Of a DNA stretch of 5,042 nucleotides, positions 2,626 through 3,213 are shown piece by piece (position 1 is the stretch's first letter; each line of letters begins with the position of its first letter). The DNA lies in the IMG/VR virus record IMGVR_UViG_2602041669_000002; one strand, written 5' to 3'. This DNA comes from a virus. Taxonomy: Duplodnaviria; Heunggongvirae; Uroviricota; Caudoviricetes. The position numbers and the translations under genes are program-made. Below the pieces are notes generated by a model. It was not told the DNA's origin. It made no database searches and saw only the letters and a program-made list of their open reading frames with translations.

Positions 2626-3213
2626 TTAAAAACTATCGCTGCCGTACTGCCAGTAACCTGGGTCGTCCGTGTGATTCGGGTTTACGTTTTTGCTGCGATT
2701 GTCTTTGTCTTTGAGAGTGGAAACCATATTTGCTACCGTTTCTGGTTTCTTTCCTTCAGCTTTTTCTTTCAGTGTCTGCCCTGTTTCTGCAATGAATGGA
2801 ATGCGGATTTCCATCTGGTAACCGTCTGCGCCAGTCTTTCTGTTTGTGGTTAATACTTTCTGGAGGACGAGTCCGATTTTCTTTCCGTGAAACTCAGGTG
2901 CAACATATTTACTGACGGAAACCATATGTTGCGTTAACTGCCCAATTCCTGTGCATCCCATCATGGCGTGAATAATGCTCGCCCCAAATTTATTTTCAGT
3001 ACCGTCATTCTTCTGAACACAAACACTGAGATATTGGATTTTCCGTCCGTCGTCGGATTCTCCAGAAAACTCAATGAATCGGGCACCTTTTTCTGATTGC
3101 TTGAGTTCTGCTTCGGTGATGTTAATGATATGCGCACCCGTTTCGGTAATAAAACTACCTTGTCCGGCGGTCAGTGCTGATTCTTCGTTATAAGTAAAAA
3201 TCACTTCATCCAT
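2626..3213 (-). CDS. Hypothetical protein, 195 aa, translationally coupled to exo
   Basis: Its ATG (reverse complement of 3211-3213) shares one base with the exo stop TAA (3213-3215), a TAATG overlap. A GGGGGG stretch lies about 10 nt upstream. GC is about 42%. The C-terminus ...NHTDDPGYWQYGSDSF ends in Phe with nearby acidic residues. No family recognised. Confidence 0.7.
   Translation of the reverse strand: MDEVIFTYNEESALTAGQGSFITETGAHIINITEAELKQSEKGARFIEFSGESDDGRKIQYLSVCVQKNDGTENKFGASIIHAMMGCTGIGQLTQHMVSVSKYVAPEFHGKKIGLVLQKVLTTNRKTGADGYQMEIRIPFIAETGQTLKEKAEGKKPETVANMVSTLKDKDNRSKNVNPNHTDDPGYWQYGSDSF

Follow-up and report, generated by a model that had tools for sequence, protein, structure and literature searches.

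A relative of the gene considered here encodes HkaK, a protein of phage HK620 that has been purified, binds single-stranded DNA (ssDNA) and, judged by its elution, is apparently a tetramer (Hutinet et al. 2018, PMC5928155). HkaK prevents annealing, whether spontaneous or mediated by RecA, does not itself anneal DNA, and stimulates the neighbouring RecA-like annealase Sak4 in vivo as well as in vitro (PMC5928155). This stimulation requires the last six residues of HkaK, NDYPPF, through which the cognate annealase loads on and anneals ssDNA coated with the ssDNA-binding protein (SSB) (PMC5928155). The same study related HkaK to the atypical SSB gp45 of phage N4, with an HHsearch probability above 95% (PMC5928155). 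A 2025 survey of lambdoid recombination modules named the HkaK type SSB-2, recorded that a RecT-type annealase (SAP type 4) occurs "with SSB-2 (TL-2011c)", and judged such promiscuity to be probably due to shuffled domains for partner interaction, the analysis of which lay beyond the scope of the survey (PMC12315714). Here we describe a locus with this RecT-linked arrangement, a 5,042-nucleotide (nt) stretch of a Caudoviricetes virus (IMG/VR record IMGVR_UViG_2602041669_000002), referred to at its full length as the window. Our subject is a 195-amino-acid (aa) open reading frame (ORF) on its minus strand (2626-3213), here called ssb, which follows recT and an exonuclease gene, exo.

The ORF very probably encodes a phage ssDNA-binding protein of the non-canonical HkaK type that would act within the RecT–Exo module. 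Its product matches PHROG 743, "single strand DNA binding protein" (E = 8e-69, residues 3-190), and BLASTP aligned it to HkaK (NP_112044) with 86% identity over residues 1-189 (E = 8e-128). It is 100% identical to YP_007001437 of phage TL-2011c, annotated in RefSeq as "single strand DNA binding protein". What the protein is, and in which kind of module it lies, were thus already known from the literature and from RefSeq phage annotation. An earlier description made from the DNA letters only (the sequence-only reading) had speculated that the protein is a recombination accessory resembling an SSB, with a tail whose terminal Phe serves in partner binding, and the PHROG match, the likeness to HkaK and the predicted fold described below all bear this out. 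Its statement that the protein has no primary-sequence similarity to known SSBs was mistaken, HkaK being a proven SSB. Judged by the evolution of its codons, ssb is clearly a real, functional gene: codons 4-180 have a ratio of non-synonymous to synonymous substitution rates (dN/dS) of 0.08 against the allele of HK629 and 0.11 against that of a second RecT–Exo-linked locus, L129.

In sequence and predicted structure the protein conforms to the HkaK type, with full-length similarity to HkaK and to the family profile, and a predicted oligonucleotide/oligosaccharide-binding (OB) core followed by a short disordered tail with an aromatic end, usually Phe in this type. The activity that marks the type, ssDNA binding together with a tail needed to stimulate the cognate annealase, has been demonstrated for HkaK with Sak4 (PMC5928155). 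The usual, non-defining position of such genes directly downstream of sak4 was not found at this locus, where recT and then the YqaJ/lambda-type exo precede ssb. Pfam and NCBIfam scans of the product gave no meaningful match. Membership of Pfam DUF669 (PF05037) was rejected, there being no match at E <= 0.1, and the model itself matches only 1 of 58 diverse relatives (E = 0.0013). The DUF669 name is nevertheless used by NCBI and in PMC5928155, and we regard the window protein as a remote, structure-level relative of DUF669 rather than a model-level member. Nor does the protein fall in the bacterial SSB family PF00436, for which an SSB profile match together with a DDDIPF-type tip would be expected. 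The wider family comprises 834 clusters at E <= 1e-3. Chromosomal copies are annotated in RefSeq as "hypothetical protein" in ~250 complete E. coli genomes, ~125 of which carry the window allele.

An AlphaFold2 model built from a 35-sequence alignment (mean predicted local distance difference test (pLDDT) 84.4, predicted template modelling score (pTM) 0.75) was confident at residues ~21-170, which form beta-strands, one inserted helix and two C-terminal helices, while residues 177-195 had a pLDDT below 50. For the core the model predicts an OB fold, as the sequence-only reading had suggested looking for, and the best matches among solved structures are ssDNA-binding proteins. In Foldseek searches of BFVD, DUF669-named models scored best (E = 1.4e-14), and matches with E down to 1e-9 included two phage SSBs, that of Vibrio phage phi50-12 and that of Roseobacter phage RD-1410W1-01, which we take to be N4-like phages. 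Alignment with hhalign to E. coli SSB gave a local 22-column match across OB strands beta4-beta5 with a probability of 87%; that of the family to the single N4 gp45 sequence spanned 154 columns (E = 0.01) with a probability of only 4%. A profile search of PDB sequences returned a chance ALBA hit (E = 0.17) as its sole match.

Two further SSBs offer structural comparisons. E. coli SSB (PF00436) has in common with the HkaK type the OB fold, a disordered Phe-ended tail and an apparent tetramer, the last of these as seen for HkaK. PrgE of plasmid pCF10 (PDB 8s4s; 13% identity), a protein of a Gram-positive conjugative plasmid, is reported to bind both ssDNA and double-stranded DNA (dsDNA) in a filamentous manner (PMC11137577), whereas no filamentous or dsDNA binding is known for the HkaK family.

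In T7 gp2.5, itself a phage SSB, the tail is acidic and its terminal Phe is used for partner binding, and a gp2.5-like fold had been put forward as the alternative to an OB fold. The fold predicted for the window protein is not like that of gp2.5. The window protein could on this account be a dual SSB and annealase like gp2.5, or a transcription activator like N4 gp45; its Phe end recalls gp2.5, and the structural matches to the SSBs of the two presumably N4-like phages, together with the HHsearch relation of HkaK to gp45 (PMC5928155), recall N4. Membership of the gp2.5 group is largely refuted by the lack of a sequence or profile match (hhalign probability 0.6%) and the position of gp2.5 outside the top structural matches. 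Moreover, gp2.5 anneals DNA unaided, whereas HkaK does not (PMC5928155). We consider either form of this explanation exceedingly improbable.

Over its full length the window is 100% identical to chromosomal sequence of E. coli 95NR1 and 95JB1. Positions 286-4760 are matched by Shiga toxin (Stx) prophages of O104:H4 and numerous other Stx-producing E. coli (STEC) strains, and by the free phages P13374, phi191 and TL-2011c (genus Oslovirus). These and other Stx phages encode the identical protein in the same gamL-recT-exo-ssb-yfdP-yfdQ layout; in the window strain, recT and the Ea22-like gene are split by the insertion sequence (IS) IS1203, which leaves the protein unchanged. The genes belong to the pL early-left operon, which on the minus strand reads gamL (beyond the window), recT, exo, ssb, a 115-aa YfdP-like gene, yfdQ/DUF2303, a 131-aa gene and an Ea22-like gene. 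The features of the window are as follows:

2626-3213, minus strand: ssb, 195 aa, of the HK620 HkaK / SSB-2 / PHROG 743 type (ORF, PHROG 743, homology, dN/dS)
2704-3153, minus strand: predicted folded core of the SSB, residues ~21-170, an OB-fold beta-barrel carrying one inserted helix (75-88) plus two helices on its C-terminal side
2629-2685, minus strand: disordered C-terminal tail, residues 177-195 (...NVNPNHTDDPGYWQYGSDSF), with a conserved Phe end and likely the partner-binding tip (pLDDT <50)
3211-3215, minus strand: TAATG stop-start overlap of exo and ssb (read from the sequence)
3224-3229, minus strand: G-run GGGGGG, a possible Shine-Dalgarno site within the 3' end of exo (judged from the letters)
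3213-3902, minus strand: exo, lambda-exonuclease/YqaJ family, 229 aa (Pfam YqaJ, 2.5e-28; PHROG 149; RefSeq)
3899-4757, minus strand: recT, 3' 285 codons only (Pfam RecT, 1.9e-24; RefSeq, with the N-terminal fragment past the IS)
2204-2551, minus strand: yfdP-like gene, 115 aa (PHROG 204; PF27127 YfdP on the L129 orthologue)
1319-2140, minus strand: yfdQ/DUF2303 gene, 273 aa (Pfam DUF2303, 1.6e-65)
847-1242: 131-aa ORF
1-285: end of an IS1203 copy, in the Ea22-like gene (perfect 285-nt inverted repeat with 4758-5042; RefSeq)
4758-5042: end of a second, inverted IS1203 copy, in recT (inverted repeat with 1-285; RefSeq)

The two oppositely oriented IS1203 copies flank the 4.5-kb recT-exo-ssb-yfdP-yfdQ segment in a layout that resembles a composite transposon. 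In P13374 (L002, 6663-7009), two small ORFs (ORF19 and ORF18) are annotated in place of the single 115-aa yfdP-like gene, which hints at a frameshift, or else at a sequencing error, within the P13374 record.

The likeness to HkaK extends beyond sequence identity to the length of 195 aa, the disordered Phe-ended tail, the place at the distal end of a pL recombination module and the overlap with the preceding stop codon. The two loci differ in what lies upstream (the RecA-like Sak4 in HK620, RecT and Exo in the window), in what lies downstream (abc2 in HK620, yfdP and yfdQ in the window) and in the protein's final six residues, which are NDYPPF in HK620 and YGSDSF, with no penultimate Pro, in the window.

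The ssb ORF starts with ATG and ends in ...DDPGYWQYGSDSF (C-terminal letters of the product, ...NHTDDPGYWQYGSDSF). Across the exo–ssb junction the minus strand reads ...GGAGAACAATGGGGGGTTAATAACTAATGGATGAA (in a second rendering, ...CAATGGGGGGTTAATAACTAATGGATGAA), one base being common to the exo stop TAA (3215-3213) and the ssb ATG (3213-3211). The G-run lies 10 nt upstream of this ATG and could be a candidate Shine-Dalgarno site. No promoter-like or terminator-like site was seen on the minus strand between exo and ssb, so the two genes are very likely co-transcribed. The sequence-only reading had pointed out the shared base and taken it to suggest co-translation and a function tied to the exonuclease and the annealing protein. 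The TAATG overlap is indeed present, yet it says little about function because such overlaps are generic throughout the operon, recT and exo overlapping likewise (ATGA, 3899-3902), and the exo–ssb junction is not conserved: in relatives the two genes either overlap, by 1 or 8 nt, or leave a gap of 6 nt.

At least 90% of 35 close relatives keep the terminal Phe. A set of 138 full-length proteins representing 50%-identity clusters of the wider family contains 95 with Phe as the last residue and 110 with F, W or Y there; 80 have a PF ending, and 36 carry the exact host SSB tip, DDDIPF. Many family members reproduce the longer host tip DFDDDIPF exactly, among them most of the Sak4-linked members from Serratia, Erwinia, Pantoea and Rahnella prophages (L028-L044), which are 35-40% identical to the window protein. 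The window tail has no penultimate Pro and follows the tip pattern xDxF. Tails of the Stx-phage alleles read GYWQYG[SG]D[SN]F, and that of the second RecT–Exo-linked lineage (P0004, locus L129) reads GYGQYNYDQF. The tips of the two, ...YGSDSF and ...YNYDQF, have in common an Asp at position -3 and the terminal Phe, and both lack the penultimate Pro.

Comparison of the window with HK629, which carries a Sak4-linked allele, located where the two tails part. By blastn, homology was limited to ssb (3204-2643, codons 4-190, 84% identity) and ended about five codons short of the stop, which leaves most of the six residues that are essential in HK620 outside it. That the DNA homology to the Sak4-linked allele ends before the tail tip, and that the tips differ, is a small new point. 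The rate of non-synonymous substitution (dN) was 0.32-0.48 in codons 181-195 and 0.06-0.08 in the body, the tail being 5-8 times the body. In the gene body, the two RecT–Exo-linked alleles do not form a clade; distances among the window allele, L129 and HK620 are roughly equal (82-84% nt identity), and L129 contains a 90-nt stretch with 97% identity to HK620. The body of ssb is therefore mosaic, and it is only at its ends that the gene follows the flanking DNA.

We surveyed the genomic context of the family in loci from GTDB genomes and IMG/VR contigs, which comprised 74 distinct protein–context pairs. In ~125 loci, the ssb family gene always lay within a recombination module or at its distal end. 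It follows Sak4 in ~100 of these and RecT–Exo in the Stx-phage loci and L129; in two Phlomobacter loci, a 249-aa protein (Rad52-like by eye only) is followed by a YqaJ exonuclease and then the SSB. A locus of Arsenophonus nasoniae (L020, 2188-3587) departs from the Sak4 and RecT–Exo arrangements, the SSB homologue following a 275-aa and a 190-aa protein; the former resembles a PD-(D/E)XK-type nuclease by eye only, and the locus may be another type of recombination module.

The uniform placement bears on the possibility that the protein is a general phage SSB, which would protect ssDNA in replication or rolling-circle growth without specific contact to RecT or Exo, its position reflecting mosaic gene order. 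Such a protein is not readily reconciled with ~125 loci that all place the gene in or at the end of a recombination rather than a replication module, with a homologue, HkaK, that acts via a recombinase-specific tail (PMC5928155), or with the strong constraint on the terminal Phe. It gains from the variable exo–ssb junction noted above and from the distribution of ssb among prophages described below, and overall we consider it possible but unlikely.

Within the 74 pairs, tail form and upstream gene went together in part. A sak4 gene lay upstream in 59 pairs, 51 of which end in PF; a YqaJ exonuclease lay upstream in 10, none of which ends in PF, and these 10 represent two or three lineages only. 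The pattern fits a tail tuned to its partner without proving it, given the few Exo-linked lineages, a Kluyvera locus described below and the mosaic gene body. Tail form tracking the upstream partner was therefore rejected as a rule and kept as a possibility. Family proteins of Salmonella, Citrobacter and Klebsiella, taken regardless of gene context, also end in DF.

Several observations weigh against a role of the protein tied to RecT and Exo through its tail. The first concerns the tail itself, which had been described as acidic and Phe-terminated: the conserved Phe stands, while the acidity is only mild, with three Asp within the last 13 residues, and the tail is rich in aromatic residues (Y, W, Y, F). 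In Kluyvera, a Sak4-linked member (L005) ends in ...YEGNDF. Tail form is therefore not a clean partner marker, because Pro-less tails also occur next to Sak4. Prophages were found with 98-99% identical RecT and Exo, an identical RecT C-terminus and no ssb, the presence/absence junction lying exactly at the exo 3' end (after ...GEQW). Frameshifted, truncated or fused copies of ssb lie downstream of an intact exo (IMG/VR L069, L154, L158-L161), which suggests that prophages can do without the gene; errors of assembly could also be the cause. IS1203 interrupts recT after about codon 32, the 5' ~32 codons now lying past the right-hand IS copy, so the module is probably cut off from pL in 95NR1 and 95JB1; with exo and ssb parted from pL, it may be inactive there. 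Finally, the part of ssb that encodes the tail may just be carried along with the yfdP-yfdQ block downstream.

Since near-identical RecT–Exo modules exist without ssb, RecT does not need the protein, and ssb is an accessory. That identical modules work without the gene, and that the gene is inherited with yfdP and yfdQ from a junction exactly at the exo 3' end, also speaks for the general SSB considered above. By analogy with the effect of HkaK on Sak4, the window protein plausibly enhances RecT–Exo recombination without being required for it, its tie to RecT and Exo being only loose. A RecT C-terminus that co-varies with the presence of ssb was considered and rejected, as the ssb-less prophages have the same RecT C-terminus. 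RecT of the window (3899-4757) and of L132-L162 bears a C-terminal extension of ~20 residues whether ssb is present or not; 56-66% identical RecT proteins of other prophages have no such extension and end near ...FLKKKAAA.

In every RecT/Exo-linked locus, and wherever the window allele occurs, ssb is followed by yfdP, yfdQ and usually the 131-aa gene (847-2551), a block that is absent from the Sak4-linked loci and from the ssb-less sister prophages. The co-inheritance of ssb, yfdP and yfdQ as one block is also a small new point. The SSB might then act with YfdP and YfdQ elsewhere, in interference with host replication or in counter-defence, with recombination not its main role. Beyond the joint presence of the four genes and their joint absence from the sisters, this would accord with the inhibition of chromosomal replication initiation reported on overexpression of K-12 yfdQ-yfdR-yfdS-yfdT (PMC4776307). 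The majority of family members, which are Sak4-linked, have neither yfdP nor yfdQ; plain linkage can explain the co-inheritance, and neither YfdP nor YfdQ has a function assigned alone. We therefore regard this explanation as very unlikely.

Returning to an SSB that serves the RecT–Exo module, we propose that the window protein would coat the 3' ssDNA left by 5'->3' resection by Exo, and that its tail tip (...WQYGSDSF) would pass this ssDNA on to a partner protein, for which RecT is the likeliest candidate and Exo a possible one. Such a hand-over would mirror the way in which RecT-family annealases read the last 7 residues of host SSB, and ssb would act as an enhancer that the module can do without. 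There is good precedent for contact between RecT and an SSB tail: RecT–SSB compatibility has been mapped to the last 7 residues of SSB, and a swap of the last 7-8 residues suffices to render an SSB compatible with Redβ, PapRecT or MspRecT (bioRxiv 10.1101/2020.04.14.041095).

A more far-reaching version makes the tip a swappable address label, retuned to recruit phage RecT or Exo and to ignore host SSB-binding proteins. The RecT–Exo-linked tips resemble that of E. coli ssb-113 (P176S), which is partner-blind. We offer this version tentatively and think it rather improbable; if it were true, gamL-recT-exo-ssb would be a self-contained recombination cassette insulated from the host.

The main gain is one of annotation, in that the chromosomal "hypothetical protein" can safely be named an HK620-type phage SSB. 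The SSB tail is known to limit the portability of RecT between hosts (bioRxiv 10.1101/2020.04.14.041095), and the question of partner specificity was raised, and left open, in PMC12315714. A natural GamL-RecT-Exo-SSB cassette that has its own SSB with a divergent tail would provide a test case for partner-specific phage SSB tails.
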